A DNA stretch of 64,000 bases, from contig JAUXSB010000009.1 in NCBI GenBank assembly GCA_030681595.1, positions 24,265-88,264 on the forward strand. Direction: 5' to 3'. The position numbers were made by a program, and so were the translations under genes. The notes beneath the pieces are model-generated. The model ran no database searches. It was given only the letters and a program-made list of their open reading frames with translations, and was not told where the DNA came from. Of the stretch, positions 3,192-44,903 are shown piece after piece. The stretch comes from Candidatus Omnitrophota bacterium. GTDB taxonomy: Bacteria > Omnitrophota > Gorgyraeia > Ghiorseimicrobiales > Ghiorseimicrobiaceae. Numbering within the stretch: the stretch's first letter is position 1; the number at the start of each line of letters is the position of its first letter.

Positions 3192-4522
3192 CTAATTCTT
3201 TTAAGATCCCTGATCTAAAAAGAAAGATTATAGTAACTTTAGGCTTGTTGGTAGTATATAGATTGGGCTGTTTTATTCCTACTCCCGGAATAGACAGCCA
3301 CGCATTGGCTGAATTTTTTAATAGAATCTCCCGTACGCAGGGAGGAGCGCTCTTTGGTATAATGAATATGTTTTCCGGCGGGGCAATGGAGAAGCTGACC
3401 ATTTTTGCCTTAGGGATCATGCCTTATATATCGAGCTCGATTATCATGCAGCTTTTAACCGCAGTAATACCGGCGCTTGAGAAAATAGCCAAGGAAGGTA
3501 AATCTGGGCATGAGAAGATTAATCAGTATACAAGGATAGGTACAGTTTTTCTGGCAGTAATACAATCTGATTTTATTGCTTTATGGCTGGAGAGCCCCAC
3601 GCAATTCGGCGGGTTAAATATTGTTTCTTTCCCCGGGTGGAAGTTTAGGCTGCTAACCGTATTTACCCTTACGGCGGGCACAATTTTTATTATGTGGCTG
3701 GGTGAGCAGATTCAGGAACGCGGCATCGGCAACGGCATATCTCTGGTGATTACTACCGGTATTATCTCTAGTATCCCAACGGCAGCAAACCAGTTATGGA
3801 TTTTAATTTCTCCTTTTTCGCCGCAAAACCGCACGCTTAGCCCCTTTACACTTTTGATTATGGCGGTACTTTTGGTAGGGGTTATTTTTGCTGTCACCGG
3901 CATTACGCAGGCGCAGCGTAAAATCCCCGTGCAGTATGCGCGCAGAGTAGTAGGGCGCAAGATTTATGGGGGGCAAAGCACATATATTCCTCTAAAAGTG
4001 GACCAGTCAGGAGTCATCGCGATCATTTTTGCTCAGTCCATAATTCTTTTTCCGGCGACTATCGCTGCTTTTATACCTAACCCGGCTTTTCAGCGTTTAG
4101 CAGAAAGTTTAATGCGCGGGCATTTACTCTATACGATAGTTTATGCGCTCCTGATAGTATTTTTTTGTTATTTCTATACGGCAATAGTTTTTAATCCGGT
4201 AGATATATCTGAAAATATGAAAAAATACGGCGGGTTTATTCCGGGGATAAGGCCGGGTAACCCCACATCGGATTTCCTGGATTTTGTAATGACGCGTATA
4301 ACGTTAGCCGGGGCTTTATTTATTGCCTTCATCGCGATATCCCCCGATTTGATTATGGCTTGGCTGAAAGTACCGTATTTAGTGGCGTCATTTTTCGGCG
4401 GGACGGCTATCCTGATTGTCGTAGGTGTTATGCTGGATACAATCAGGCAGATTGAATCAAATTTAATAATGCATAATTACGAAGGTTTTTTAAGGTCGGG
4501 GCGTATTAAAGGCAGGCGTTAA
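3176..4522 (+). CDS. secY: preprotein translocase subunit SecY
   Basis: 448 aa, ten hydrophobic segments, conserved SecY motifs (GIMPYISSSIIMQLL). Overlaps the rplO stop. Confidence 0.93.
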   Translation: MLKALANSFKIPDLKRKIIVTLGLLVVYRLGCFIPTPGIDSHALAEFFNRISRTQGGALFGIMNMFSGGAMEKLTIFALGIMPYISSSIIMQLLTAVIPALEKIAKEGKSGHEKINQYTRIGTVFLAVIQSDFIALWLESPTQFGGLNIVSFPGWKFRLLTVFTLTAGTIFIMWLGEQIQERGIGNGISLVITTGIISSIPTAANQLWILISPFSPQNRTLSPFTLLIMAVLLVGVIFAVTGITQAQRKIPVQYARRVVGRKIYGGQSTYIPLKVDQSGVIAIIFAQSIILFPATIAAFIPNPAFQRLAESLMRGHLLYTIVYALLIVFFCYFYTAIVFNPVDISENMKKYGGFIPGIRPGNPTSDFLDFVMTRITLAGALFIAFIAISPDLIMAWLKVPYLVASFFGGTAILIVVGVMLDTIRQIESNLIMHNYEGFLRSGRIKGRR

Positions 4523-6335: not shown

Positions 6336-6411
6336 TTTAAGTTATAGGTAAGAAGTTATGAGTTATGATTTATAACTTGTAACTCTTAAGCGACTGAAAG
6401 GAGCGAAGCAA

Positions 6412-7314: not shown

Positions 7315-7419
7315 TAATAGCGTTTAGCAAATAGCGCAGAGCGGATAGTTTTTTAAAGGTTTTCTATGCGCTAAACGCTACACGCTACATGCTATACGCT
7401 AAATTGATATGGAGGGTTA

Positions 7420-9771: not shown

Positions 9772-9851
9772 AATTCCTCTTAGCGATAACAAAAGAATAT
9801 ATTAAACCCCGCCAGAGTAATTTTTTGGCGGGGTAAATATCAAGCAGACTC

Positions 9852-11021
9852 TTGATGAATAAGCTTGCTCAGCGTGTCAAGGATATAGAACCGTCTTCGA
9901 CACTTGCTATAACTGCCCGCGCAAAAAAAATGCGCCAAGAAGGTTTGGATGTAATTAGTTTTGCCGCAGGTGAGCCTGATTTTGACACTCCTCAATATAT
10001 CAAAGACGCCGCTATAAAGGCATTAGCGGAAGGTTTTACTAAGTATACCCCCTCAAGCGGTATCCCCGAATTAAAAAAGGCCATCCAGAAAAAATTTAAG
10101 CTTGATAATAGCCTAGATTATGAACCAGAGCAGATTATCGTTTCTTGCGGGGCAAAACACTCACTTTTTAATATAATTCAAGTTTTGGTAGATAAAAATG
10201 CTGAGGTGCTTATCCCATCGCCTTATTGGGTGAGTTATCTGGAAATGGTTAAGTTTGCCCAAGGCAAAGCTGTAATTCTTAAGACAGACAGTAGAAACTC
10301 TTTTAAGCTTAACGCCGAAATTTTAAGTAAAAACATCACAAAGAAAACCAAGCTGCTTATTTTAAATTCTCCTTCTAATCCTGCAGGCTGTGTATACAAG
10401 AGAGAAGAACTTGATGACATCGCGCAAATATGCGTAAAAAATAAGCTATGGGTGTTAAGCGACGAGATATATGAGAAACTTATTTATGAAAATAATAAGC
10501 ATATTTCTATCGCCACTTTAAATAATGACATATATAAGCTTACCTTTGTAGTAAATGGCGTCTCTAAGGCTTACTCAATGACCGGCTGGCGCATAGGATA
10601 TCTTGCCGGAGATAAAGAGGCAGTAGAGGCAACAGCGAGGCTGCAGGATCACTCTACTTCTAATCCTTGTTCCATATCGCAAAAAGCGGCTTTGGCAGCG
10701 TTGTCTTCCGACAATGGCTTTATTGATAAGATGCGCCTTGAATTTGAGGAAAGGCGTAACCTGATGCTTTCCGAGTTAGATAAAATAGGGTTGGATTATA
10801 TTAAACCAGAAGGTGCGTTTTACGTTTTTCTGGATATTTCAAAGGCTAAGATTGGTTCATGGGAGTTCTGCGATAAATTTTTGGCGGAAAAATATGTTGC
10901 CGTAATCCCGGGTGCGGCATTTGGAAATGATAATTATGTACGTTTTAGTTTCGCGGCCAGTATGCCGGAAATAAAAAAAGGTTTAGAGCGGCTAAGAGAA
11001 TTCATAAGCTCGCCCCGTTAG
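9852..11021 (+). CDS. PLP-dependent aminotransferase class I (aspartate or aromatic aminotransferase-like)
   Basis: 389 aa with the PLP-lysine context SKAYSMTGWRIGY. Typical AspAT fold-type I signature. Confidence 0.85.
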   Translation: MMNKLAQRVKDIEPSSTLAITARAKKMRQEGLDVISFAAGEPDFDTPQYIKDAAIKALAEGFTKYTPSSGIPELKKAIQKKFKLDNSLDYEPEQIIVSCGAKHSLFNIIQVLVDKNAEVLIPSPYWVSYLEMVKFAQGKAVILKTDSRNSFKLNAEILSKNITKKTKLLILNSPSNPAGCVYKREELDDIAQICVKNKLWVLSDEIYEKLIYENNKHISIATLNNDIYKLTFVVNGVSKAYSMTGWRIGYLAGDKEAVEATARLQDHSTSNPCSISQKAALAALSSDNGFIDKMRLEFEERRNLMLSELDKIGLDYIKPEGAFYVFLDISKAKIGSWEFCDKFLAEKYVAVIPGAAFGNDNYVRFSFAASMPEIKKGLERLREFISSPR

Positions 11022-17036: not shown

Positions 17037-17340
17037 ATAATAGGCACATTGGCTGAGACGATTTGGTTTTGGCTATATTGAAAGCCAAACCACTGCTTTC
17101 TAGCTTTGTTGGAGCGAGACAAGGAACGAGGACGCCGGCGTAGTCGCAGTACTACGCCAAAGACGAGTGACGCAGGCGCAGCCCAAAAGCGGCCAGCCCC
17201 TTCGGGGAAGGCGCATCTTTGGCCTGCTACCGCGTTGCTCCTCCTCGAAGTAGTGCATAGACTACATCTTCGTCGTCGCGCCTTGCATCAGGCTCAAATC
17301 TTCGCCTTCCGATGTACCCATTATTTATCGGAGGCTCAGT
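17021..17340. mobile_element. MITE-like 320-bp insert bounded by perfect 20-bp terminal inverted repeats, between bioH and bioC
   Basis: 17021-17040 (actgagcctccgataaataa) is the exact reverse complement of 17321-17340. The interior is GC-rich, unlike the flanks, and contains a cccc-ttcg-gggg hairpin. The left TIR supplies the bioH stop codon. The interior shares an identical 25-mer with the hisS 3' end (50128-50152). The ORF 17106..17342 inside it is probably spurious. Confidence 0.5.
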
Positions 17341-17353
17341 GAAAGGTTTAGCG

Positions 17354-18130
17354 ATGATTTCTAAAGAATTAATCCGGAGGAATTTTTCAAATGTAGCGGC
17401 CAATTATGACGAGCACGCTGTTATACAAAAAAAATCCGGCTGCGAGCTCGTCGGACAATTACGAAAAGATAAAAATAATTATGGAGCGATTTTAGATATA
17501 GGCACGGGGACAGGCGGTTTATTGAGGGATTTGTCTTTGGTGTGCAGGCCCGCGTTAATATGCGGTCTGGACATTTCTTCCAATATGCTTATAAAAGCCA
17601 GGGCGTCTGAAAAGAGTAGCTTCTTTATACAGGCCGATGCAGAAAACATTCCTTTTAAAAAAAACACATTTGATTTAGTCGTTTCTAATTTGGCTTATCA
17701 GTGGCTTATGGATTTAGATAGCGCTTTTATTCAACTAGCAGGGATTTTAAAAGAAAGAGGGATGTTTTATTTTACTTCTTTTGGCCGCCGGACGCTTTCC
17801 GAACTAAGGGAATGTCTCAAGTCGGTAAAAGAAGCATCCGATTACAACATTTTTCCCGCAAAGGAAGCAATGCATTCCAAATTAAAAAATGCTGGGTTTG
17901 CGAATATTAAAATTATCTCGAAAATAGAGAAAGAGTTTTTTGTTGATTCTTTCAGCCTTATCCGCTGGTTAAAATATTCTGGGGCAAACAGGATAGGCGT
18001 TCGGTTTAATGGGCTTGAGGCGCGGGGTGTACTTAAAGAAATGGATAAATTATATTTAGAGAAATACCCGGCTGGCGGCGGCGTATTTGCCTCGTTTGAA
18101 AGATATATTGTTAAAGCAGAAAAAAGATGA
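17354..18130 (+). CDS. bioC: malonyl-ACP O-methyltransferase
   Basis: SAM-methyltransferase motif ILDIGTGTG. The ORF track starts at 17312 inside the right TIR. The Met at 17354 (MISKELIRRNF) aligns with typical BioC N-termini. Confidence 0.82.
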   Translation: MISKELIRRNFSNVAANYDEHAVIQKKSGCELVGQLRKDKNNYGAILDIGTGTGGLLRDLSLVCRPALICGLDISSNMLIKARASEKSSFFIQADAENIPFKKNTFDLVVSNLAYQWLMDLDSAFIQLAGILKERGMFYFTSFGRRTLSELRECLKSVKEASDYNIFPAKEAMHSKLKNAGFANIKIISKIEKEFFVDSFSLIRWLKYSGANRIGVRFNGLEARGVLKEMDKLYLEKYPAGGGVFASFERYIVKAEKR

Positions 18131-18200
18131 GCCCCGCCCTTCCTGAAATTTGATAAAGTAGGAAGGCATGGGCCAGAAAGAGAAAGGAAGAGCGGGGTGA
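18131..18200 (+). promoter_or_regulatory. repeated leader element copy 1: ccccgcccttcct … gaaaggaagagcggggtGa, embedding the SD and GTG start of bioD
   Basis: Near-identical ends to the element at 27995-28046. The cttcct tract can pair with either of two downstream aggaag tracts. The bioD GTG lies inside the 3' arm. Confidence 0.5.
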
Positions 18201-18862
18201 GAAAAGGTGTCTTTATCAGTGCAACCGGCACGGGCATAGGCAAGACTTTAATTAGTTCTTGTATCATACGTCTTTTAAGATTAAAGAAAATAGACTGCGG
18301 CGTAATGAAGCCCGTACAGTGCGGCGGAGACGATGCCCAGCGCCTGATCCGGCGCGCTGGAGTAAATGATCCCATAGGATTGGTAAGCCCTTTTTATTCT
18401 AAATACCCATATGCTCCGCTCGTTGCATTTAAGAAAGAGGGGATAAATTTTAATGCAGGCATAGTTATTTCAAGTTTTAAGGCTTTATCCAAGCGGCATA
18501 AATTTATGGTTGTAGAGGGCGCAGGAGGGATGCTCGTTCCTTTAGCGAATAATTATTTTATCGCGGATTTAGTTTTAGATTTAAAACTTCCGCTTATAAT
18601 TATTGCTTCAACAGCCTTAGGCACAATAAACCATACCCTGCTTACGGTTGAATCCGCCAAAAAGAGGAAAATAAAGATTCTAGGCATTATCTTTAATAAT
18701 TTATCTCTTAAGGCCGGAGTTGCAGAAAAGATAAATCCGGAAGTCATCCAGAGAATCTGCCGCCTGCCAATATTGGGCAATATCCCCTATATACAGCCAT
18801 GCATAAACAACAAAAATATCCTTAAGCTAGGCATAGACTTAGGCAGGATTTTACATGAGTAA
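18197..18862 (+). CDS. bioD: dethiobiotin synthetase
   Basis: GTG start. P-loop TGTGIGKT. Confidence 0.88.
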   Translation: MRKGVFISATGTGIGKTLISSCIIRLLRLKKIDCGVMKPVQCGGDDAQRLIRRAGVNDPIGLVSPFYSKYPYAPLVAFKKEGINFNAGIVISSFKALSKRHKFMVVEGAGGMLVPLANNYFIADLVLDLKLPLIIIASTALGTINHTLLTVESAKKRKIKILGIIFNNLSLKAGVAEKINPEVIQRICRLPILGNIPYIQPCINNKNILKLGIDLGRILHE

Positions 18863-20141
18863 AAATTTAGAATTATTAGACAAAAAATATATCTGGCATC
18901 CGTTTACGCAGATGTATGATTGGTTAAAAGAAGAACCGTTGATTATCAAAGAAGCCAAGGGTTCTTATTTAAAAGATATAAAAGGCAGGTGGTATTTAGA
19001 CGGTGTATCTTCTTTATGGGTAAATGTCCACGGCCACAGAAAAAAAGAGATTGATAGCGCGATAAAAAAACAACTGAGTAAAGTAGCGCATTCAACATTT
19101 TTTGGGCTAAGCCATAAACCCGCTATTGAATTGGCAGGGCGGCTCGTCAATATTGCTCCCGGAGGGCTTAGTAAAGTATTCTATTCGGATAATGGTTCAA
19201 CTAGCGTCGAGGTAGCCTTAAAAATATGCTTTCAATACTGGCGCCAGAAGGATAAAAAAGAAAAAACAAAATTTATATATTTTAAAAACTCCTATCACGG
19301 CGATACCATCGGTTCAGTTAGTGTTGGAGGTATAGGTTTATTTCATGGATTGTACCGGCCTTTGCTTTTTAAGGGGTATTGCTTGCCGTTTTCTATTGCG
19401 CGTGTAAAAAACGTTCTAGAAAAGCATCACCGGGAGATTGCCGGTTTAATCGTAGAGCCGATGATACAGGGGGCGGCAGGGATGTTGCTTATGCCGAAAG
19501 GATTTTTTAAAAAAATACGCGATTTATGCTTGCGTTATAATGTTTTGTTTATCGCTGATGAGGTTGCAACGGGGTTTGGCAGGACCGGGAAGATGTTTGC
19601 CTGCGAACATGAAGGGGTTAGGCCGGATATCTTATGTTTAGGTAAGGGAATTACCGCTGGATACCTTCCTTTGGCGGCGACATTGACGACAGGCAAAGTT
19701 TATTCTGCATTTTTAGGCGAATATAAAGATAAAAAGGCTTTTTTCCACGGCCACAGTTATACCGCTAATCCCTTAGCCTGTGTTGCGGCGATAGAGAATT
19801 TGAATTTGTTTGAAAGGGAAAAAACGCTTAAAAAATTGCAGCCGAAAATAAGCTTTCTTAAAAAAGAACTTAAAGCGTTTGAGGCGCTTGAACACGTCAA
19901 AGAAGTGCGGCAATTGGGTTTTATGGTAGGGATTGAACTGGTGAAAGATAAAGCCGGAAATGAGCCTTACCTTTGGGAAGAAAAAATCGGTATCCGCGTA
20001 ATAAAGGAAGCGAGAAAAAAAAGGGTTATCCTCAGGCCGCTTGGAAATGTCATAGTGCTTATGCCGCCTTTATCTATAAGCAGTTTTGAGCTAAAATTAC
20101 TTCTTGAAATTACTCGCCAGTCAATCCTGTCGGTAACCTAA
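18855..20141 (+). CDS. bioA: adenosylmethionine-8-amino-7-oxononanoate aminotransferase
   Basis: 428 aa class-III aminotransferase. Confidence 0.9.
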   Translation: MSKNLELLDKKYIWHPFTQMYDWLKEEPLIIKEAKGSYLKDIKGRWYLDGVSSLWVNVHGHRKKEIDSAIKKQLSKVAHSTFFGLSHKPAIELAGRLVNIAPGGLSKVFYSDNGSTSVEVALKICFQYWRQKDKKEKTKFIYFKNSYHGDTIGSVSVGGIGLFHGLYRPLLFKGYCLPFSIARVKNVLEKHHREIAGLIVEPMIQGAAGMLLMPKGFFKKIRDLCLRYNVLFIADEVATGFGRTGKMFACEHEGVRPDILCLGKGITAGYLPLAATLTTGKVYSAFLGEYKDKKAFFHGHSYTANPLACVAAIENLNLFEREKTLKKLQPKISFLKKELKAFEALEHVKEVRQLGFMVGIELVKDKAGNEPYLWEEKIGIRVIKEARKKRVILRPLGNVIVLMPPLSISSFELKLLLEITRQSILSVT

Positions 20142-23973: not shown

Positions 23974-24051
23974 CGGGGCGTGGCTCAGTTTGGCTAGAGC
24001 ACTTGAATGGGGTTCAAGGGGTCGACAGTTCGAGTCTGTCCGCCCCGACCA
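23974..24051 (+). tRNA. tRNA-Pro (anticodon GGG), with encoded CCA
   Basis: Manually folded. Acceptor CGGGGCG/CGCCCCG with the C1:G72 pair typical of tRNA-Pro and U8. D-stem GCTC/GAGC. Anticodon stem CTTGA/TCAAG with loop AT-GGG-GT. T-arm GACAG-TTCGAGT-CTGTC. Discriminator A, then CCA. Confidence 0.8.
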
Positions 24052-24513: not shown

Positions 24514-24879
24514 ATGGCTTACAACGGAAAAGAAAGACGAAAGTACACCCGCATTAGTAGAACCTTTATAGTCTCTTACAGGATTTTAAAAGAAGTCGAT
24601 AATTACGACTTAACGCAAACTAAGAATATTAGTACCGGAGGAATGCTTCTTACGACAAACAGGCTTTTTGGCCCGGGCACGCTTTTAGCCATAGATATAA
24701 GGCTGCCTTTCTTGATTGAGCCTTTGAATTTAAAAGGACAGGTCATTGATTCCAGGGAAGTGGTAAAAAATTTGATCTATGATACCCATCTGGAGCTTAT
24801 CGATGCCGATGAGGAAACCAAAGAAGTGATTAATAAGACGGTAGTTTATCACCTTAAGAAGGCCGGAGAACAGAAATGA
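24514..24879 (+). CDS. PilZ-domain protein (single domain, 121 aa)
   Basis: ERRKYTRI and KNISTGGMLL motifs. Tandem paralogue of the previous ORF. Confidence 0.72.
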   Translation: MAYNGKERRKYTRISRTFIVSYRILKEVDNYDLTQTKNISTGGMLLTTNRLFGPGTLLAIDIRLPFLIEPLNLKGQVIDSREVVKNLIYDTHLELIDADEETKEVINKTVVYHLKKAGEQK

Positions 24880-26171
24880 AAAGAGTTAATATTGGCTTAA
24901 TCGGGTTCGGCACGGTAGGAAGCGGCGTAGCAAGGGCGCTCCTGGAAAGAAAATCACTGCTTGCCAAAAGAAGCGGCATAGAGCTGGTTTTAAAAAAGAT
25001 CTGCGATAAAGACCTATCGCGCAGGCGTTCGGTTATTGTGAATAAGTCGCTTCTGACCGATAACGTAAATGAAATCCTAAATGATAAAGAAATTGATATA
25101 GTAATTGAGCTTATCGGTGGGATACATCCGGCGAAGGAGATAATCATAGAGGCGTTAAAGAAAGGCAAGCATGTTGTTACCGCCAATAAGGCGCTTTTGG
25201 CAGAAGAAGGCCTAGGGTTGTTTAAACTTGCCGACAGGCTAAATAAAAATATTTATTTTGAGGCTTCTGTAGGCGGAGGAATTCCGCTTATCAAATCTCT
25301 AAAAGAAGGCCTTGTTGCCAATAGGGTTGAGGCGATTTACGGCATTGTAAATGGGACATGCAATTTTATCTTAACCCAGATGTCGGAGAGAGGCATAAGT
25401 TTTAAGGATGCTTTGGCAGAGGCGCAAAAAAGAGGTTTTGCTGAGCGGAAGCCGACCTTAGATATAGAGGGGTTTGATTCGGCACATAAATTAGCCGTGC
25501 TTACCCAGCTGGCATTTGGTAAGTTTGTAAAAATGTCTGATATTTTTATTGAAGGGATTTCGCGTATTTCGCTGCAGGATATACGTTATGCCGCGGAGCT
25601 TGGTTTGGTGATAAAACTTCTTGCCATTGCCAAAAAAGAAAAGGATGAGCTGGAAGTGCGCGTGCACCCGACAATGATACCGCGCGATCACCTTTTGGCC
25701 TCTGTAGGCGGAGCTTTTAACGCTATTTATATTTCGGCGGATATGGTCGGCGATATGCTTTTTTACGGTTTAGGCGCGGGGCAGAATCCTACCGCATCCG
25801 CGGTGGTAAGCGATTTGGTATCTTTGGCGCAGGCCTTAAATGGCGAAGAGGCATATGTCAGGCCGTTTGATTTTTCTCAAGGTAAATCTATCCGCCATTT
25901 GCGGAAAATAGACCAAATCAGCACGAGATTTTATATCAGGTTTATGGCAATTGATAAGCCGGGTATTTTTGCGAAAATTTCCGGTATCTTAGGCAAGTAT
26001 AAGATTAGTATTGCATCTGTCGCGCAAAAGGAAAGGCGCCGCGCAAAGATTGTCCCGGTTGTAATAATTACTCATGAAGCGCTGGAAAAGTCAATGCGTA
26101 TTGCCTTAGAAAAAATAAATAAGCTAGCCATCGTTAAAGAAGCAGTAGCGATTAGGATGGAAGAGACTTAA
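24876..26171 (+). CDS. hom: homoserine dehydrogenase with a C-terminal ACT domain
   Basis: N-terminal NAD-binding GLIGFGTVG, catalytic domain, and an ACT-like C-terminus. Confidence 0.9.
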   Translation: MKRVNIGLIGFGTVGSGVARALLERKSLLAKRSGIELVLKKICDKDLSRRRSVIVNKSLLTDNVNEILNDKEIDIVIELIGGIHPAKEIIIEALKKGKHVVTANKALLAEEGLGLFKLADRLNKNIYFEASVGGGIPLIKSLKEGLVANRVEAIYGIVNGTCNFILTQMSERGISFKDALAEAQKRGFAERKPTLDIEGFDSAHKLAVLTQLAFGKFVKMSDIFIEGISRISLQDIRYAAELGLVIKLLAIAKKEKDELEVRVHPTMIPRDHLLASVGGAFNAIYISADMVGDMLFYGLGAGQNPTASAVVSDLVSLAQALNGEEAYVRPFDFSQGKSIRHLRKIDQISTRFYIRFMAIDKPGIFAKISGILGKYKISIASVAQKERRRAKIVPVVIITHEALEKSMRIALEKINKLAIVKEAVAIRMEET

Positions 26172-26223: not shown

Positions 26224-27339
26224 TTGGAAATTGGGTATTTTAAAACTATGTGGCAGGGGATAATTTCGCAGTATAAAAATTATTTAGATTGTATAAACAA
26301 TAAAACTCCGGTTGTGACGATAAACGAGGGCAATACGCCTTTAGTCTATTCGCATAATCTAAGCAAGTTAATCGGCGCAGAAGTCTATTTAAAATACGAA
26401 GGCTTGAATCCTACCGGTTCATTCAAGGATAGGGGCATGACCGTTGCCATATCTAAGGCAAAAGAGGATAAATCAAAGGCAGTAATTTGCGCCTCGACGG
26501 GGAATACCTCCGCGTCAGCGTCTGCGTATGCGGCAAAGGCGGGATTAAAGTCTATTGTGCTGGTGCCGGAAGGCGCAATTGCCCTAGGAAAGCTTTCGCA
26601 GGCCTTAATTCACGGCGCGATAGTATTACAGGTTAAGGGTAATTTTGACGATGCTTTGAATATGGTAAGAGAAATCAGTTCGAAATATCCTATAACATTA
26701 GTTAATTCAATTAACCCTTACCGCCTTGAGGGGCAGAAAACCGGTGCCTTTGAGATATGCGATTGTTTGGGGGGAGCGCCTGATTTTCAGGTAATGCCTG
26801 TGGGCAATGCCGGCAATATCACAGCTTATTGGAAGGGGTATAAAGAATACAGGGAAAAAGGAAAGATAAAAGTTCTTCCGAAAATGCTGGGTTTTCAAGC
26901 AGCGGGTGCGGCTCCTATCGTAAAAGGGCATATCATTAGGAAACCAAAGACAATTGCGACGGCTATCCGTATCGGCAACCCTGCCAGCTGGAGGAGGGCC
27001 CAAGAGGCGCGGGATGAGTCCGGCGGCTTAATCGACATGGTAAGCGACAAAGAGATTCTTTCGGCGTATAAATTTTTAGCGCAGAAAGAAGGAGTTTTTG
27101 TTGAACCGGCATCCGCGGCATCCGTTGCCGGTTTATTTAAATTAGTTAAAAAAGGATACTTTTCCCGCATACGACCCAAGCCATCGCTTGGGTGCCCCGA
27201 CGCAGGACGCACAACGCGAATAGTTTGCATCCTTACCGGCCATGGATTAAAGGATCCCGATATGGTGCTGGCAACAATAAAAAAACCAAAGGTAATAAAG
27301 GCCGATATAAAAGCGGTATTAAAAGAAATTGGATATTAA
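26224..27339 (+). CDS. thrC: threonine synthase
   Basis: PLP lysine in PTGSFKDRG. The start could instead be the Met at 26248. Confidence 0.9.
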   Translation: MEIGYFKTMWQGIISQYKNYLDCINNKTPVVTINEGNTPLVYSHNLSKLIGAEVYLKYEGLNPTGSFKDRGMTVAISKAKEDKSKAVICASTGNTSASASAYAAKAGLKSIVLVPEGAIALGKLSQALIHGAIVLQVKGNFDDALNMVREISSKYPITLVNSINPYRLEGQKTGAFEICDCLGGAPDFQVMPVGNAGNITAYWKGYKEYREKGKIKVLPKMLGFQAAGAAPIVKGHIIRKPKTIATAIRIGNPASWRRAQEARDESGGLIDMVSDKEILSAYKFLAQKEGVFVEPASAASVAGLFKLVKKGYFSRIRPKPSLGCPDAGRTTRIVCILTGHGLKDPDMVLATIKKPKVIKADIKAVLKEIGY

Positions 27340-27994
27340 TAAGAGTAACCAGAAACCAGTAACCAGTAACCAGAATTTAAAAAATAAGAGAATATTGATT
27401 ACGGCAGGCCCCACCTGGGTTCCTATAGATAGTGTTAGGGTAATTAGTAATATTGCTACAGGAGAGACCGGAATTATTTTAGCCCAAAAGTTACGCAAGG
27501 CAGGCTGTAAAGTTACGTTGTTACTTGGACCTGTGGGTAATTATCAGAATAAGAAAATACGGCTTTTGCGTTTTAGGTTTTTTGAAGAATTAAAGGCTAT
27601 ACTTAAGAGAGAATTATGCCGCGGTAGATACGATATTGTAATTCATTCAGCCGCGGTTTCTGACTATAAGCCGAAGAAATCTTTTAGGCGAAAGCTTGTA
27701 TCCAGCATTAAAAATCTTAAGATAGATTTAATCCCGGCAGAAAAAATCATCGATTTAATTAAGCGGACTGACAATTCTTTATTTTTGGCGGGTTTTAAAT
27801 TTGAGCCTGATATAAATAAGGAAAAACTTTTGGCGCAGGCAAGAGAATTAATGAAGCGTAGCGCTTGTGATTTGGTGGTAGCTAATACGCTTAGGGGCGG
27901 ACGTTATTCGGCATATTTAGTCAGAAGCGATAAAGTTCAAGGCCCGTTATATACTAAAAAAAAATTAGCAGAACAGTTGATAAAAAATCTATGA
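27329..27994 (+). CDS. coaB: phosphopantothenate-cysteine ligase (CoaB-only). Start uncertain.
   Basis: ITAGPTWVPIDSVRVISNIATGETG motif. The first ~25 codons contain the aaccagt heptamer tract and may be 5' leader. An alternative TTG start is near 27403. Confidence 0.75.
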   Translation: MDINKSNQKPVTSNQNLKNKRILITAGPTWVPIDSVRVISNIATGETGIILAQKLRKAGCKVTLLLGPVGNYQNKKIRLLRFRFFEELKAILKRELCRGRYDIVIHSAAVSDYKPKKSFRRKLVSSIKNLKIDLIPAEKIIDLIKRTDNSLFLAGFKFEPDINKEKLLAQARELMKRSACDLVVANTLRGGRYSAYLVRSDKVQGPLYTKKKLAEQLIKNL

Positions 27995-28046
27995 ACCCCG
28001 CCCTTCCTAAAAAGAGCGGGGGATCCGAGAAAGGAAGAGCGGGGTG
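27995..28046 (+). promoter_or_regulatory. repeated leader element copy 2, embedding the SD and GTG start of apgM
   Basis: accccgcccttcct…agagcggggg…gaaaggaagagcggggtGa. The block agagcgggg occurs twice, so ccccgccc has two alternative pairing partners. Confidence 0.5.
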
Positions 28047-29237
28047 AAATACATTGTTTTAGTCCCGGATGGCATGGCGGATTACCCGGTTGAGGACTTG
28101 GGTGGCAAGACTCCTCTCGAGGCCGCAAAAACACCTAATTTAGATTTTGTGGTAAAAGAAGGTTTGCTGGGCCGGGTAAAAACTGTCCCTTTGGGGCTTC
28201 CGCCGGCATCGGATGTGGCAAATTTATCTATTTTTGGTTACGACCCGCAGAAATATTATACCGGAAGAGGGCCGTTTGAAGCGGCGAATTTAGGCATAGC
28301 GCTTGAGCCGGGCGACATCGCTTTTAGGTGTAATCTAATCACCGCGGAAGAAGATGTGCTTACTGATTATAGCGCCGGACATATTTCTACAAAAGAAGCC
28401 GTAGCGTTGATGAGGCTTATTAACGAAAAGTTAGGCAGTGAAAATATTTTGTTTTATCCGGGTATGAGCTACCGCCATATTATGATAGCAAAAGGGGGAG
28501 TCAATAAAAAACTAGATAAAATAAGGTGTGTCCCGCCGCATGATATTATCGGAGAAAAGGTATCCAAGAACCTGCCTTGCGGTGAGAATGCGGAAATTTT
28601 GATTAAGCTGATGCAGGCATCAAGAGAAATATTGTCCAGCCACGAGGTAAATAATGTGCGCATCGACCTAAAGGAAAATCCTGCGAATATGATCTGGCTC
28701 TGGGGCCAGGGGGTAAAACCGGATATGCCGAAGTTTAGCGAAAAGTTCGGAATTTCAGGCTCGGTAATTTCAGCGGTAGATTTAATTAAGGGTATTGGCA
28801 GGATTGCTGGGCTTGAAGTTATTGATGTCCCCGGCGCCACCGGCTATTATGATACGGATTACTTTGGCAAGGCCAAATACGCGCTTAAATCTTTAGACAC
28901 AAAGGATTTTGTCTATGTGCATATTGAGGCTCCCGATGAGGCAGGGCATAATGGCGACCTAAGAGAAAAGATTGCCGCGATAGAAAGATTTGATCAGTTG
29001 GTGGTTGGGACTATCTTAGATGTTTTAAAAGAGAAAGAGGATTTCCGCTTGCTTATACTGCCAGACCATGCTACGCCTTTATCTAAGCGTACGCATACGC
29101 CAGACGATGTAGGTTTTGTGATTTATGGCTCTGGTATTGTTTCTAACGGCTATTCTGTATTTACTGAGGAGGAGGCAAAGAAAAGCAGCCTGTATATTAC
29201 AGAAGGGCATAAATTGATGGAATACTTTATAAGATAA
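28044..29237 (+). CDS. apgM: 2,3-bisphosphoglycerate-independent phosphoglycerate mutase, archaeal-type (ApgM)
   Basis: 397 aa alkaline-phosphatase superfamily. The N-terminus LVPDGMADYP is typical of ApgM. Confidence 0.85.
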   Translation: MKYIVLVPDGMADYPVEDLGGKTPLEAAKTPNLDFVVKEGLLGRVKTVPLGLPPASDVANLSIFGYDPQKYYTGRGPFEAANLGIALEPGDIAFRCNLITAEEDVLTDYSAGHISTKEAVALMRLINEKLGSENILFYPGMSYRHIMIAKGGVNKKLDKIRCVPPHDIIGEKVSKNLPCGENAEILIKLMQASREILSSHEVNNVRIDLKENPANMIWLWGQGVKPDMPKFSEKFGISGSVISAVDLIKGIGRIAGLEVIDVPGATGYYDTDYFGKAKYALKSLDTKDFVYVHIEAPDEAGHNGDLREKIAAIERFDQLVVGTILDVLKEKEDFRLLILPDHATPLSKRTHTPDDVGFVIYGSGIVSNGYSVFTEEEAKKSSLYITEGHKLMEYFIR

Positions 29238-32132: not shown

Positions 32133-34940
32133 ATGAACGAAATTCCCTCCCGATATAACCCCAAAGAAGTTGAAGAGAAATGGTATAAGTTTTGGGAAGA
32201 AAATAAGCTATTTTCCGCAAAGCCCACTCCTAATAAGAAACCTTTCTGTATAGTCATACCTCCGCCTAATGTGACCGGAATTTTACACATGGGGCATGCC
32301 TTGAATAATTTCATACAGGATATTTTAACCCGTTACCAGCGAATGAAAGGTAGTGAGGCGCTCTGGATACCTGGGACAGACCATGCCGGGATTGCCACGC
32401 AGAACGTGGTGGAGAAGAAATTGGCTAAAGAAGGTAAAAAACGGCAGGACTTAGGGCGCGATGAATTTTTAAAGGAAGTCTGGAAATGGCGCGAGGAATA
32501 CGGTTCAACTATTATCAAGCAGCTTAAGAAATTAGGCGCATCCTGTGATTGGGAGCGTACTCGTTTTACTATGGATGAGGGCTACAGTGATGCAGTGCTG
32601 GAAGTATTTATTCATTTATATAATAAAGGCCTCATTTATCGGGGAAAGCGTATTATTAATTGGTGCCCGCGTTGTTCAACCGCGCTTAGCGATGAAGAAG
32701 CTCCTTATAAGGAATTGGAAGGGCAGCTTTATTATATACGGTATCCAATTAAAGTCACCAGTCATACCCTTGCGGGCACAGGCCAGTCATACCCTTGCGG
32801 GCACAGGCCAGTCACCAGAAAAAAACAGAAAACTATCAATTACGTAGTAGTGGCGACGACGCGGCCGGAGACGATGTTGGGCGATACGGCGGTAGCGGTT
32901 AATCCCAAAGACAAGCGCTATAAAGACCTGATAGGAAAGACTGTTATTCTTCCTTTGGTTGAGCGGGAAATTAAAATTATCGCTGATAATTTTGTTGATC
33001 CGAAATTCGGTACAGGCGCGGTTAAGGTTACCCCTGCCCATGATCCTAACGATTACCAGATGGGGCTGCGGCATAATCTAGAGTTTATTAATATTATGCA
33101 GGTCGATGGTGTGTTGAATTCTAATGCCGGCGAATACGATGGTATGGATAGGTTTGAGGCACGCCAGGCAATAGTTAACGATTTAAAAGAGCGTAAGCTG
33201 CTGGAGAAAATAGAACCGCATATGCATTCCGTAGGGCATTGCTATCGTTGTTCAACCGTAATTGAGCCATATTTGTCCAACCAGTGGTTTGTGAAAATGA
33301 AGCCTTTATCCAAACTCGCGTTGGAAGCGGTGAAAAAAGGCGAAATTAAATTTTATCCTAAGCGTTGGACAAAGGTTTATTTAAACTGGATGGAAAATAT
33401 TCAGGATTGGTGTATCTCGCGGCAGATTTGGTGGGGGCATAGGATGCCTGTTTATTATTGTAAAAATTGCTACAAGCCTCAAGCTTCAGGCTCCAAGCTT
33501 CAAACTGAAAAAGAAAAGCCTGCAGCAGATAAGGGTATCTTTGTTTCAAAGAATAAGCCGGAGAAATGCCCGGATTGCGGCTCAAGCGATATTTATCAAG
33601 ACGAAGATGTGTTGGATACTTGGTTTTCTTCCTGGCTCTGGCCGTTTGCGACGTTTGGCTGGCCGTTTACAAGCTACAAGCCTCAAGCTGCAAGCGACAA
33701 GCAAAAAAGCCTGCAGCAGGACGAACTTAATTACTTCTACCCTACTTCGGTATTAGTGACTGCTCAGGAAATAATCTTTTTCTGGGTGGCGCGCATGATT
33801 ATGGCGGGCTTTGAATTTATGGGTAAAAAGCCGTTTTCCGATGTTTATATCCATGGTACGGTGCGCGACGATACCGGTAAAAAGATGTCTAAGTCTCTGG
33901 GTAATATTATTGACCCGCTTGAAATTATAAATGAGTTTGGATCAGACGCGCTTCGTTTCAGTATTATTTCCCTGACCAGCGTAGGCCAGGATGTCTTTTT
34001 ATCTAGGAATAAATTTGAATACGGCAGGAATTTCGCCAATAAAGTCTGGAATGCCTCGCGCTATACCATAATGAACCTTAAGCCAGAAGAAATAAATGTG
34101 GATTTGTGCGCCTATTCTAAAGGTATATCCGGGCTTGCCGAGAAGTGGATTTTAAGCCGGTTTTACAGCGCTTTAGATAGAATAGAGAAGGCGCTTAAGC
34201 AGTATAAAATTAACGAGGCGGCTAAGGTAATGTATGAATTTTTCTGGCATAATTTCTGTGATTGGTACCTGGAATTTTCTAAGTTAACATTGGGGAGGCG
34301 CCAAACGCAGGTTGTGCTTTATAAGGTATTGGAAAAATCCCTGCGTGTTATGCATCCGTTCTTGCCGCATCTGACCGAAGAAATATGGCATAACCTGCCG
34401 GGTACAAAATCGTCCATAATGACGGAAAGCTGGCCGCATTTGCAGAAACAGTTTATCTCAAAAACAACGGATAAACAGATGCAGGTTTTGATAGATTTAA
34501 TTTCCCTGATAAGGAATATCCGTTCTGAATGGCACATATTGGAACACGCTGAAATAGAATGTATTATTAAGACTACAGATAAGGCTTCAAAAAAACTCAT
34601 ACAGGAAAACGATATTTATCTAAAAAAATTAGCAAAGCTAGGCCAGATAAAAATCGTAGAGAAAGCCGAAGATGTTTCCATGTGCGCATCCGGCGTGGCA
34701 GGAAAACTCGATTTTTATATACCACTTGAAAAACTTATTGATTTGACAAAAGAAAAAGAGCGCCTGTCTAAACAAATACAGTCATTTGAGGCGCAGTTTA
34801 AGGCTTTGAGAGAAAGATTAAAGAATAAGGAATTTCTTAAAAAAGCGCCCAACGAAGTGGTGGAAAAAGAAAAAATCAGGTTAGAAGAGTTATCGAAATT
34901 AATCAAGCGTATTGGCGATAATTTAAAAGTATTGGGTTAA
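32133..34940 (+). CDS. valS: valine--tRNA ligase, carrying in-frame repeat insertions
   Basis: 935 aa. HIGH (PPNVTGILHMGHA), KMSKS, editing domain, and a C-terminal coiled coil. Confidence 0.93.
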   Translation: MNEIPSRYNPKEVEEKWYKFWEENKLFSAKPTPNKKPFCIVIPPPNVTGILHMGHALNNFIQDILTRYQRMKGSEALWIPGTDHAGIATQNVVEKKLAKEGKKRQDLGRDEFLKEVWKWREEYGSTIIKQLKKLGASCDWERTRFTMDEGYSDAVLEVFIHLYNKGLIYRGKRIINWCPRCSTALSDEEAPYKELEGQLYYIRYPIKVTSHTLAGTGQSYPCGHRPVTRKKQKTINYVVVATTRPETMLGDTAVAVNPKDKRYKDLIGKTVILPLVEREIKIIADNFVDPKFGTGAVKVTPAHDPNDYQMGLRHNLEFINIMQVDGVLNSNAGEYDGMDRFEARQAIVNDLKERKLLEKIEPHMHSVGHCYRCSTVIEPYLSNQWFVKMKPLSKLALEAVKKGEIKFYPKRWTKVYLNWMENIQDWCISRQIWWGHRMPVYYCKNCYKPQASGSKLQTEKEKPAADKGIFVSKNKPEKCPDCGSSDIYQDEDVLDTWFSSWLWPFATFGWPFTSYKPQAASDKQKSLQQDELNYFYPTSVLVTAQEIIFFWVARMIMAGFEFMGKKPFSDVYIHGTVRDDTGKKMSKSLGNIIDPLEIINEFGSDALRFSIISLTSVGQDVFLSRNKFEYGRNFANKVWNASRYTIMNLKPEEINVDLCAYSKGISGLAEKWILSRFYSALDRIEKALKQYKINEAAKVMYEFFWHNFCDWYLEFSKLTLGRRQTQVVLYKVLEKSLRVMHPFLPHLTEEIWHNLPGTKSSIMTESWPHLQKQFISKTTDKQMQVLIDLISLIRNIRSEWHILEHAEIECIIKTTDKASKKLIQENDIYLKKLAKLGQIKIVEKAEDVSMCASGVAGKLDFYIPLEKLIDLTKEKERLSKQIQSFEAQFKALRERLKNKEFLKKAPNEVVEKEKIRLEELSKLIKRIGDNLKVLG
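32755..32818 (+). repeat. in-frame repeat insertion A: 25-bp unit tcatacccttgcgggcacaggccag in tandem x2, flanked by tcaccag direct repeats
   Basis: Read directly. The two copies are translated in different frames (SHTLAGTGQ, then SYPCGHRPV). Net insert 57 bp. The same unit recurs in nadC. Confidence 0.85.
33468..33533 (+). repeat. in-frame repeat insertion B copy 1 (heptamer-based: five NNCAAGC units plus aaaagcctgcagcag)
   Basis: ctacaagcctcaagct…aagcctgcagcag recurs 200 bp downstream. It sits between the two Cys pairs of the valS zinc knuckle. Confidence 0.7.
33668..33725 (+). repeat. in-frame repeat insertion B copy 2
   Basis: acaagc tacaagc ctcaagc tgcaagc gacaagc aaaaaagcctgcagcagg. 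The 3' block is read in a different frame from copy 1. Confidence 0.7.
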
Positions 34941-34943
34941 ATT

Positions 34944-35843
34944 ATGCAGAAAAAAGAAATTATCAATATCGTAAAAAATGCCCTTAGGGAAGATGCCGCG
35001 GATAGAGATATTACTACGCAGGCGCTTATTCCTCTGGATTTAAGGGCAGCGGCAAGGATTATTACCAAAGAAAATGGGGTAGTTTGCGGATTAAGCATTG
35101 CGGAACTCGCCTTTAAGCTGTTGGATAAAAATATCAAGTTTAAGGCAAAAGTCAAAGATGGTGCGGTAATAAAAAATGGTAGTTGTTTGGCAGAGATTTA
35201 CGGTAGGGCACGGCCAATTTTATCTGCAGAACGTACCGCACTCAATTTCTTAGGGAATCTTTGTGGAATAGCCGCGTTTACCCGTCAATTCGTAGAAAAA
35301 GTTAAACCGTATAAAACTAAGATTCTGGATACCAGAAAAACTACGCCGAATTTAAGAATACTGGAAAAATACGCGGTGCGTTGCGGCGGCGGGTTCAACT
35401 ACCGTTTTGATTTAAGCGAACAAATATTGGTTAAAGATAACCACATAAGAATCACAAATGACAAATTACAAATGGCAAATTTAAAATATGTCGTTGAGGC
35501 CGTACGAAAAAACGTGAAGGGTAAAAAAATTGAGATTGAGGTAGATAATTTAAGGCAGTTCAAAGAAGTAATTGCTGTGGCGCCCGATATTATCATGCTG
35601 GATAATTTTAATCTGTCTGATATCAAAAAAGCGGTAAAGATTAAAAATCGGTCACCAGTCATACCCTTGCGGGCACAGGCCAGCCACCGGTCGCCGGTAA
35701 AACTAGAAGCATCTGGTGGAATAACTTTAAGAAATATTAAGAAAGTTGCTGCAACCGGCGTAGATTTTATCTCTATCGGCGCGCTCACCCATTCAGTTAA
35801 ATCCTTGGATTTATCTTTAGAAATCACTAAAAAATCTGCGTAA
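34944..35843 (+). CDS. nadC: nicotinate-nucleotide pyrophosphorylase (carboxylating), carrying an in-frame repeat insertion
   Basis: 299 aa QPRTase. The usual C-terminal …LEASGGI motif is interrupted by the insert. Confidence 0.88.
   Translation: MQKKEIINIVKNALREDAADRDITTQALIPLDLRAAARIITKENGVVCGLSIAELAFKLLDKNIKFKAKVKDGAVIKNGSCLAEIYGRARPILSAERTALNFLGNLCGIAAFTRQFVEKVKPYKTKILDTRKTTPNLRILEKYAVRCGGGFNYRFDLSEQILVKDNHIRITNDKLQMANLKYVVEAVRKNVKGKKIEIEVDNLRQFKEVIAVAPDIIMLDNFNLSDIKKAVKIKNRSPVIPLRAQASHRSPVKLEASGGITLRNIKKVAATGVDFISIGALTHSVKSLDLSLEITKKSA
35651..35690 (+). repeat. in-frame insertion of repeat A (single 25-bp unit, flanks tcaccag / ccaccgg) in nadC
   Basis: Identical 25-mer to the valS copies, translated in the third possible frame (VIPLRAQAS). 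Net ~39 bp. Confidence 0.85.
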
Positions 35844-43275: not shown

Positions 43276-44817
43276 GTGCCTAAAAACACTATACTAATTT
43301 TGGATTTTGGTTCGCAATACACACAGTTGATTGCGCGCCGTGTGCGCGAGAATAACGTTTTTAGTTTAATCGTGCCTTATAATATTAAGGCCGCTGAAAT
43401 TAAGAAGCTCAGCCCCCGGGGCTTAATTCTTTCCGGGGGCCCTGCAAGCGTATATGCCAAGGTTTCTCCCCAGCCGGATAAAAATATATATAAATTAGGT
43501 ATTCCCATTTTAGGTATTTGTTATGGTTTGCAGGTGAGCGCGCAGATTTTAGGCGGCAGGGTTAAATTTAGCAAACAGCGTGAATACGGCCGGGTTGAGT
43601 TTTTTGCGGATGACCATAAAGACCTTTTTAATGGCGTATCCGGTAACTTTACCTGCTGGATGAGTCATGGAGATTATTTAACCGGGCTTCCCAAAGGTTT
43701 TAGCTGTATTGGGCACACTTTAAATACTCCGCTAGCTGCAATTGCCGATAGGAAGCGGCGTATATTCGGGCTGCAGTTCCATCCGGAAGTAGCACATACA
43801 CAAAAGGGCGATAAGATTTTAGCTAACTTTTTGTTTAAGGTATGCGGCTGTTCTTCGGATTGGGTGATGGAATCATTTATAAAAGAAGCGATAGATAAAA
43901 TCAGAAAGGCTGTCGGAAAAAAGAAGGTTATTTGTGGCCTATCCGGAGGGGTGGATTCTTCGGTTGTTGCTTTACTTATCCATAAGGCTATCGGTAACCA
44001 ACTGCGATGTATTTTTATTGATAACGGCCTATTGCGTAAAGACGAGCCGGAGCAGGTAAGAAAAACTTTTAAGGAGCATTTTAAGATAAATTTGGATTAT
44101 GTTGTGGCAGGCGCGCGGTTTTTAAAGAAACTCAAGGGCGTAACTGACCCGGAAGAAAAAAGAAAAATTATCGGCAATGAATTCGTTAAGGTTTTTGAAG
44201 AAGAGGCGGTTAAATTTAAAGGCGCGGAGTTTTTAGCGCAGGGTACGCTTTATCCGGATGTGATTGAGTCTGTCCCGGCGTTCGGGGGGCCAACCGCAAA
44301 AATTAAGACACATCACAATGTCGGCGGGCTTCCTTTAAATATGAAACTTAAACTCATTGAGCCGTTGCGCGAATTATTCAAGGATGAAGTGCGTTTAATT
44401 GGTAAACAACTAGGCCTGCCCGTCAACATTATAAGCCGTCAGCCTTTTCCGGGTCCGGGGCTTGCGATACGCATTATCGGCGAAGTTACCGAAGAACGCC
44501 TCGCGATTGTAAGGGAAGCTGATGAGCGGCTCCTTGAAGAGATAAAAAAATCAGCGATTTATCCGGATATCTGGCAGTCGTTCGCCGTGCTTTTACCGGT
44601 AAAAAGCGTAGGCGTGATGGGCGATGAAAGGACTTATGAGAATGTTGTCGCTGTAAGATGCGTTTCCAGTGTTGACGGCATGACTGCCGACTGGGTAAAA
44701 GTGCCTTATGAAATATTAGAGAAGATTTCCAACAAGATTATTAACGAAGTCAAAGGTATTAATCGCGTTACTTACGATATAAGCTCTAAACCTCCGGCAA
44801 CTATTGAGTGGGAATAA
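43276..44817 (+). CDS. guaA: GMP synthase (glutamine-hydrolysing)
   Basis: 513 aa. GATase-1 (catalytic Cys in GICYG) plus ATP-PPase SGGVDSSV. Confidence 0.93.
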
Positions 44818-44822
44818 TGATG

Positions 44823-44903
44823 AAGTTATAAGTGGTGAGTTATGAGTTATAAATTTAAAAAAGTAACTTAAACTTGTAACTTATAATTTATAACTCATAA
44901 CTT
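44823..44903. repeat. ~80-bp AT-rich near-perfect palindrome (gagttatgagttataaatt … aatttataactcataactt)
   Basis: 19-bp arms with nested inner arms. The same agttatgagttat / ataacttgtaact motif occurs at 6353-6387. Confidence 0.8.

Follow-up and report, generated by a model that had tools for sequence, protein, structure and literature searches.

Two copies of a short palindrome precede bioD and apgM

The window, a stretch of 64,000 nucleotides from a contig of a Candidatus Omnitrophota bacterium, carries two copies of a short palindromic repeat. One lies between a gene for a BioC-like methyltransferase and a bioD gene, which is followed by that of a BioA-like aminotransferase; the other lies between a CoaB-like gene and apgM (Table 1). 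A repeated leader had been proposed at 18131-18200 and 27995-28046, and the repeat is real, with exact bounds of 18132-18197 (66 nt) and 27996-28044 (49 nt). Both copies begin and end with the same 13-mers, CCCCGCCCTTCCT and AGGAAGAGCGGGG, which are reverse-complementary at all but one position, where the + strand has a C.A mismatch but the - strand can form a G.U pair. The common 3' 19-mer, GAAAGGAAGAGCGGGGTGA, occurs exactly twice in the window, against 0.03 occurrences expected from shuffles. Each copy fills the entire gap between the upstream stop codon (TGA at 18128-18130 and at 27992-27994) and the ORF that opens with GTG.

The GTG codons of bioD and apgM had been taken for the last three bases of the repeat. 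Their G does belong to it, as the final base of the 3' arm, whereas the TG is part of a 4-nt target, duplicated so that it flanks each copy on both sides. On the 5' side, the tetranucleotide and the A before it spell an ATG, which opens a short upstream ORF (uORF). At copy 2 this is the former apgM start, now the beginning of an 18-codon uORF (MNPALPKKSGGSEKGRAG*) that ends in a GTGA overlap. Apart from these copies, a covariance model of the family, run over the window with filters off, found only a short relative with a weak score, at 9802-9838. No Rfam family matched either copy at gathering or E<=1 thresholds, and neither promoters nor terminators were predicted at them.

Table 1. Coordinates of the genes, element parts and other features of the window.
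Feature	Position	Strand	Remark
SAM methyltransferase (BioC-like)	17312-18130		Pfam
Copy 1, 5' target copy TGAG	18128-18131	+	With A18127 forms the ATG of the 8-codon uORF MSPALPEI*
Copy 1, 5' arm CCCCGCCCTTCCT	18132-18144	+	
Copy 1, inner decoy (B') AGGAAGGCATGGG	18160-18172	+	Degenerate copy of the 3' arm, pairable with the 5' arm
Copy 1, 3' arm AGGAAGAGCGGGG	18185-18197	+	SD-like AGGAAG; last G is base 1 of the bioD GTG
Copy 1, 3' target copy TGAG	18198-18201	+	TG finishes the bioD GTG (ORF 18197-18862)
AAA_26 (BioD family)	18197-18862		Pfam; GTG start
Class III aminotransferase (BioA-like)	18855-20141		Pfam
DFP C-terminal domain (CoaB-like)	27329-27994		Pfam
Copy 2, 5' target copy TGAA	27992-27995	+	A27991 plus TG is the former apgM start codon
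Copy 2, 5' arm CCCCGCCCTTCCT	27996-28008	+	
Copy 2, inner decoy (B') GAGCGGGGG	28014-28022	+	
Copy 2, 3' arm AGGAAGAGCGGGG	28032-28044	+	SD-like AGGAAG; last G is base 1 of the apgM GTG
Copy 2, 3' target copy TGAA	28045-28048	+	Flank matches the ATGAAATAYAT start of about 60 of 80 apgM orthologs
PhosphMutase/metalloenzyme (ApgM)	28044-29237		Pfam; GTG start
Unoccupied ATGAA stop/start overlap	24876-24880	+	ORF 24514-24879 / ORF 24876-26171; L071 ortholog filled exactly there
Probable short relative TAAA-CCCCGCCAGAGTAATTTTTTGGCGGGG-TAAA	9803-9837 (9802-9838 in the covariance model)	+	Covariance model 17.3 bits, E 0.004; intergenic, off start codon
Long unit CCCCGTTAGAGA...142 nt...TCTCTAACGGGG (166 nt), then TAAA	11013-11182	+	ATG of the next gene at 11183
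Degenerate ~7-nt tandem repeats (AGTTATG)	6339-6384, 7370-7399, 33469-33512, 33673-33702, 44809-44888		
36-nt repeat GTCACCAGTCATACCCTTGCGGGCACAGGCCAGTCA, two copies overlapping at 25-nt offset	32754-32814		
36-nt repeat GTCACCAGTCATACCCTTGCGGGCACAGGCCAGTCA, third copy	35651-35686		2.9 kb off
36-nt repeat TGGTTTTGGCTATATTGAAAGCCAAACCA..., two copies	17064-17099, 50123-50158		Hairpin-containing; 92% identity
tRNA	23974-24048		58.2 bits against a gathering score of 29 (E-value Rfam run)

A dispersed family in Omnitrophota

We scanned contigs of one genome per species for the pattern CCCCGCYCTTCCT-N12-42-AGGAAGRGCGGGG. In this species-representative scan 104 loci matched both arms, nearly all of them in Candidatus Omnitrophota MAGs and with several per genome; a few carry other NCBI labels, and four are unrelated hairpins of other phyla. 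A covariance model built on 70 copies added about 20 diverged copies in 680 kb of scanned loci, and decayed arms appear as a tail beyond the exact matches in the counts of arm mismatches. There are thus more than 100 copies, and the suggestion that the leader is transposable or duplicated, and no coincidence, holds.

The elements are non-coding, measure 44-68 nt and are dispersed in many copies, in keeping with the size (under about 300 bp) and copy number of MITEs. Their arms are complementary at 12-13 of 13 positions and so qualify as terminal inverted repeats (TIRs). Loops span 12-42 nt among exact-arm copies, which is the range of the scan, and are shorter or longer in diverged relatives. 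The genes behind the element are unrelated to each other, belonging to biotin, glycolysis, purine and isoprenoid metabolism, encoding an H+-PPase, and others. No copy was found in 274 kb surrounding 80 apgM orthologs from metagenomes. Because scanned loci hold many copies and the surroundings of these 80 orthologs none, the family is patchy across Omnitrophota, apparently abundant in some lineages and absent from others.

Target duplication and empty sites

The tetranucleotides on the two sides of the element covary: they are identical in 96 of 101 pairs, across three different tetranucleotides (TGAA/TGAA in 70 copies, TAAA/TAAA in 19 and TGAG/TGAG in 7), and mixed in the other 5. Rarer TTGA/TTGA and CGAA/CGAA pairs are also present, and in tandem arrays one TGAA is common to neighbouring copies. 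Read in the sense of the gene, the layout is RTGAR-[element]-TGAR.

The apgM locus provides a direct comparison between filled and empty sites. All 80 orthologs (63-77% protein identity) are free of the element, and about 60 of them begin with ATGAAATAYATWGT (ATGAAATAYAT), often with the stop of the upstream gene in an ATGA overlap. The junction in the window reads ATGAA[element]TGAAATACAT or, more widely, ctATGAA[49 nt]TGAAATACATTGTT. Since the orthologs show the empty site and the window shows the duplicated target, we interpret the apgM copy as an insertion. A tblastn search of downstream proteins among the scan loci gave at least nine more filled/empty orthologous pairs with the same geometry: L069 vs L036 (ATGAA[el]TGAAGGATTAC when filled, ATGAAGGATTAC when empty), L049/L068 vs L097, L101 vs L005 and L102, L102 vs L101, L084 vs L054, L087 vs L004, L091 vs L072, L028 vs L091, and L071 vs the window itself, which is unoccupied at 24876. 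In each case the empty site holds one copy of the tetranucleotide, as a target-site duplication predicts. For bioD a single distant empty ortholog was found (L035, 56% identity), at which the site is not identical.

Formally, the same flanks would also arise if the element ended in a tetranucleotide of its own that is identical to the one it targets, and one copy, L030, has TGAA/TAAA flanks together with a TAAA-type loop, which hints at carry-over of the 3' tetranucleotide. Overall, flanks and orthologous sites argue with high confidence for a dispersed element inserted with duplication of a T-R-A-R target. It is highly probable that each copy is an inserted, small, non-autonomous palindromic element of REP/MITE type, with 13-nt TIRs, that is tolerated at translation starts.

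TGA-flanked insertions mostly coincide with start codons

The last G of the element plus TG opens an ORF of at least 90 codons in 70 of 87 TGA-flanked copies, so that about 80% of them sit on a start codon (RTGAR). The rebuilt GTG aligns with residue 1 of orthologous proteins free of the element. Across 77 copies, conservation of the flank is confined to positions -5 to -1 (A65/G11, T, G, A, A65/G10), which spell a start codon with AR behind it. In roughly one third of copies the 5' TGA doubles as the stop of a long upstream ORF, in an ATGA overlap, and elsewhere the ATG is left orphaned. SD-like 4-mers precede the old ATG in 38-43% of copies, compared to 15% at random positions. By a rough count, RTGAR is available in 238 start contexts and at 747 non-coding sites, from which at most 24% of tolerated insertions would be expected at starts, against the roughly 80% observed.

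Survivor selection, instead of targeting, could be the source of this preference. Alternatively, the element might actively home to translation starts as a portable initiation cassette (made up of an SD, the opening base of the start codon and a decoy against sequestering) moved by a hairpin-recognising enzyme, HUH/RAYT-like or other, that reads T-R-A-R; we hold active homing to be possible, if doubtful. Copies of the main subfamily all point the same way with respect to the gene. With respect to TGAA the orientation is fixed, and the ends form a hairpin.

TAAA-flanked copies are ordinary intergenic insertions, away from starts. Such relatives, and the GC-rich extragenic palindrome as such, are what one would see if the element were a REP-like mRNA stabiliser or a terminator hairpin between genes. 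This is nonetheless very unlikely: the hairpin is without a U-tract on either strand, no terminator is predicted at the two window copies, and copies lie inside operons directly 5' of the next start, not behind the last gene. It would also leave the SD, the GTG and the flank duplication unexplained.

The element brings a Shine-Dalgarno sequence, an upstream ORF and a decoy

The original prediction that the element embeds the SD and the start codon holds for the SD and for part of the codon: its 3' arm contains AGGAAG at 7-8 nt 5' of the GTG and ends in the G. At the other end the 5' arm is itself translated, and uORFs from the orphaned ATG always start with M-N/S-P-A-L-P (e.g. MNPALPK...). Relative to the GTG, this ATG is in frame 0 in 32 copies, 17 of which run through into the gene, in frame 1 in 16, and in frame 2 in 30, 20 of which terminate in a GTGA overlap like that of window copy 2. 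This bias (32:16:30 in 78 copies) is marginal only. A MIRU-like mini-ORF overlapping both genes is hence found in window copy 2 and in 20 of 78 copies, not in copy 1 nor in most others. We rejected the idea that the mini-ORF is a conserved peptide gene, given that loops of every frame occur and that the peptides are alike just where the arm is translated, and likewise in-frame insertion of the RPE kind as a rule, with read-through in just 17 of 78 copies. As a separate observation, ORF listings that take the first ATG, GTG or TTG extend some genes upstream through the element (...RKGGVK...), as in L072 at 3950-4495 (-) and others; such extended N-termini are likely to be mis-annotated starts in public Omnitrophota proteomes.

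Conservation in the loop is limited to a G-rich stretch close to the 5' end, with the consensus AAAGGGYTGGGG (in long copies AGGAAGG.TGGGG). This stretch repeats the 3' arm in degenerate form and is hence a decoy for the 5' arm. In start-codon copies the duplex of 5' arm and loop has a mean energy of -15.2 kcal/mol, with 86% of copies at or below -8, compared to means of -9.7 kcal/mol for shuffled loops and -1.7 kcal/mol for TAAA-flanked copies, nearly all of which lack the decoy; the mirror pairing, of the loop with the 3' arm, is negligible. In a start-codon copy from a second arm subfamily (L061, CCCCGTTAGAACCT...AGGTTCTAACGGGG) the decoy, TCTAACGGGG, is likewise matched to the arms. The two competing partners of the 5' arm that had been noted in the window are thus present and turn out to be a trait of the whole family: the energies predict mutually exclusive hairpins, tied to the start-codon context. 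CG-type copies have four G-tracts; a G-quadruplex was set aside because the window copies, which are CA-type, are missing the fourth.

Predicted folds and translation

When folded with short flanks, both window copies adopt the long 13-bp helix as their predicted minimum-free-energy structure, at about -25 to -26 kcal/mol. Fold z-scores are -2.4 and -2.9 in sense and -3.8 and -4.5 in antisense. For copy 1 (bioD) the long helix is favoured by ~10-12 kcal/mol at 10, 25 and 37 C, and because of this no thermal switch is predicted there. For copy 2 (apgM), the pairing of decoy and 5' arm is the minimum when 30-35 nt to either side are included in the fold; its conformers are close in energy, and the minimum varies with the flanks folded, shorter ones giving the long helix. 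When the 5' arm is held single-stranded, the mean unpaired probability from the SD to the GTG rises from 0.15 to 0.55.

An SD and a first start-codon base inside a helix with an alternative partner had been read as RNA thermometer or riboswitch-like logic. A leader dedicated to bioD and apgM would then sense temperature or a metabolite. Known thermometers (ROSE, fourU) have far weaker helices. The bioD helix of about -25 kcal/mol, with its gap at every temperature from 10 to 37 C, is far above their strength and, in silico, is not the weak, mismatch-rich SD helix that melts; the apgM copy is without such a gap, yet nothing there suggests sensing. As for a ligand, arms and flanks are the only invariant parts, with no conserved loop, pocket or ligand core, no Rfam match, no occurrence in orthologous leaders (none of 80 for apgM) and a set of unrelated housekeeping genes instead of a coherent one. 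Together with target duplications and empty sites, which are signatures of insertion, this makes a sensory leader extremely improbable.

After insertion, the upstream copy of TGAA or TGAG retains the old ATG and, where present, the stop of the upstream gene, while the terminal G of the element and the downstream TG form a new GTG at the orthologous first codon, before which the 3' arm sets AGGAAG as an SD. For translation we propose the following mechanism with moderate confidence. In the mRNA, the long 13-bp helix would bury SD and GTG alike. The 5' arm would be opened by ribosomes that reach the stop of the upstream gene or that translate from the orphaned ATG, so that coupling would occur by RNA unfolding or by re-initiation, both of them established models (PMC12548453). 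The decoy would capture the 5' arm and help the initiation region remain open, leading to continued expression of the gene. A gene struck by the element is probably still translatable, and we infer that the element is built for tolerance at translation starts and is no sensor.

Some of these features could also be expected from a control module domesticated under host selection, in which translation is tuned by hairpin switching or by an obligatory coupling with the upstream ORF; this is the logic of the original proposal with no particular ligand assumed. Only start-codon copies have the decoy, and a second arm subfamily has one as well, but it is equally explicable as a feature that lets a parasite survive at start codons. 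At orthologous filled sites (L017/L047/L090, L019/L073 and L075/L082; 54-79% protein identity) arms are perfect while loops drift; this conservation is biased, however, as copies were ascertained by exact arm match, and diverged arms exist. The near-equal conformers of the apgM copy also speak for domestication, as does the over-representation of uORF frames that read through or end in GTGA (62 of 78). Yet the genes served are unrelated, the element is missing from all 80 apgM orthologs, and sites compared between orthologs have either a copy or a clean empty target. We regard domestication as unlikely, and return to a tolerated mobile element as the preferred reading.

Arm subfamilies and the search for a mobiliser

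We found 21 distinct complementary arm pairs, with compensatory changes between subfamilies at positions 6-13 and a constant CCCCG/CGGGG foot beside the T-R-A-R flank, a REP-like combination of palindrome and tetranucleotide. Single contigs can hold several subfamilies together. The original prediction had staked itself on further copies and on compensatory changes that preserve the hairpins, and both exist, although the TIRs of mobile DNA would be expected to show such changes as well. Stems that vary yet stay complementary hint at structure-specific recognition of a hairpin (HUH/RAYT-like, on single-stranded DNA), which they would fit better than sequence-specific binding of TIRs; arm covariation alone proves neither.

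Within about 0.8-1 Mb of loci, there were no arm pairs 150-4500 nt apart enclosing a transposase or ORF that could represent an autonomous parent, and an all-vs-all blastp revealed no multi-copy transposase-like protein. These loci thus revealed no autonomous IS that shares the ends of the element and could be its partner, as expected for MITEs. A tblastn search with an approximate E. coli YafM query returned one weak match, later confirmed as a RAYT (NF047646, 85.5 bits for a cut-off of 80; Pfam Y1_Tnp), on the element-bearing contig L052 at 3539-4069 (-). RAYT homologs are common and syntenic in Omnitrophota, as a single copy beside the H+-PPase gene or DUF192/T2SS genes, and we retrieved four further 20-kb loci (L185-L188, with the gene at 10001-10483), from which the element is absent. 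All five RAYTs are bounded by inverted GGGACAC...GTGTCCC repeats of another family, and in none of these loci is the RAYT flanked by the element, as it would be in a REP/REPIN system. With flanking repeats of a different family in five genomes, we claim no link between RAYT and the mobilisation of the element. The RAYT-flanking repeats consist of one forward and two reverse arms, the same layout as the element, which is possibly relevant.

Comparison with known repeats

The element resembles MITEs such as Correia/NEMIS and MITEAba12 in its size of ~40-80 nt, lack of coding capacity, TIRs, direct repeats, copy number and empty sites. It differs from them in that no parent IS with the same ends is present in the loci searched, in that subfamilies share just a 5-nt foot, and in being far smaller than most. 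Moreover, it sits on start codons, supplying an SD and the first base, and its orientation is fixed on a non-palindromic target, a bias that would be unusual for a MITE of DDE type. Single-strand transposition of the IS200/IS605 (HUH) type would give hairpin ends and insertion in a set orientation 3' of a target tetranucleotide, with no true duplication; the 3' tetranucleotide of our element may be either duplicated target or a part of the element itself.

With REPs and REPINs it has in common a GC-rich imperfect palindrome, size, the tetranucleotide at the foot, stems that vary and remain complementary, persistence across related species, and a RAYT gene in an element-rich genome (L052). To our knowledge, REPs have not been reported with target duplications or at start codons, and the Omnitrophota RAYT and its four homologs are flanked by GGGACAC...GTGTCCC, not by the element. 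Rickettsia RPEs are similar as palindromic selfish DNA tolerated in or beside coding sequence, and the 17 of 78 copies read in frame would add ~17-22 residues (MNPALP...RKGGVK) to their proteins. RPEs, in contrast, insert in-frame and are translated as protein segments, whereas element lengths are not restricted to multiples of three and the start is rebuilt.

MIRUs are intercistronic repeats of operons in which small ORFs overlap the flanking stop and start, implying translational coupling (PMC3184786). Window copy 2 is alike (ATGA...18 codons...GTGA), but MIRUs are mycobacterial tandem units of unrelated sequence, only 20 of 78 copies of the element keep the overlap frame, and what defines it is its hairpin together with the duplicated target. 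The REP2 (CREN) repeats of Neisseria and the IR repeats of Borrelia carry an RBS and an initiation codon (PMC3184786), which the element also brings, here as the first base of the codon. Those repeats are ~120-150 nt long, without TIRs but with a promoter, and tied to a co-regulated gene set, whereas the element does have TIRs, matches no promoter and precedes genes that share no functional theme. Finally, MS2 coat-lysis, rpmI-rplT and f1 VII-IX also have a downstream start in a helix whose other strand is covered by ribosomes completing an upstream ORF (PMC12548453); in our case the coupling device would come ready-made, delivered by mobile DNA to many unrelated gene pairs. Full-text searches within a limited library of papers returned no earlier description of the arm sequences, the MNPALP peptide or the Omnitrophota repeats. 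The element is a previously undescribed variant of small palindromic mobile elements.

Other repeats in the window

The short hairpin flanked by TAAA (Table 1) is, from its sequence, a probable minimal relative of the element. The 166-nt unit farther along has no matching 5' flank, the upstream ORF stops at a TAG within its 5' arm, and its interior is GC-rich and structured-looking; it may be a long member of the CCCCGTTAGA subfamily or of the same superfamily. In many Omnitrophota loci, start codons are closely preceded by degenerate tandem repeats of ~7 nt. In the window their unit is AGTTATG, and upstream of apgM in L107, L122, L139, L152, L165, L170 and L175 units such as TTACTAG/TTACGAG, ACGCAAT and GCTNCAA are found. 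Two 36-nt repeats, in three and two copies, complete the set, one copy of the TGGTTTTGGCTATATTGAAAGCCAAACCA repeat lying just 5' of the bioC-like gene. A whole-window Rfam run at gathering thresholds listed nothing, including the tRNA of Table 1, presumably through a filter effect of that run.

Implications

If our reading is correct, a selfish element copes with hitting essential genes by putting back the parts it pushes aside, namely the SD, the start codon and the access of ribosomes. A further lesson is that two hairpins arranged like a switch at an SD are not necessarily a sensor. The element affects gene calling in a poorly known phylum, either through GTG starts or through false N-terminal extensions (MNPALP...RKGGVK). 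Its insertions are natural experiments on translational coupling across many unrelated gene pairs, and their presence or absence provides phylogenetic markers for Omnitrophota lineages. Beyond this, the element points to a mobilisation system with an unusual target. Should active homing be true, it would be the first described bacterial mobile element to target the start codon itself, and RBS strength and translational coupling would have been rewired for dozens of housekeeping genes per genome.
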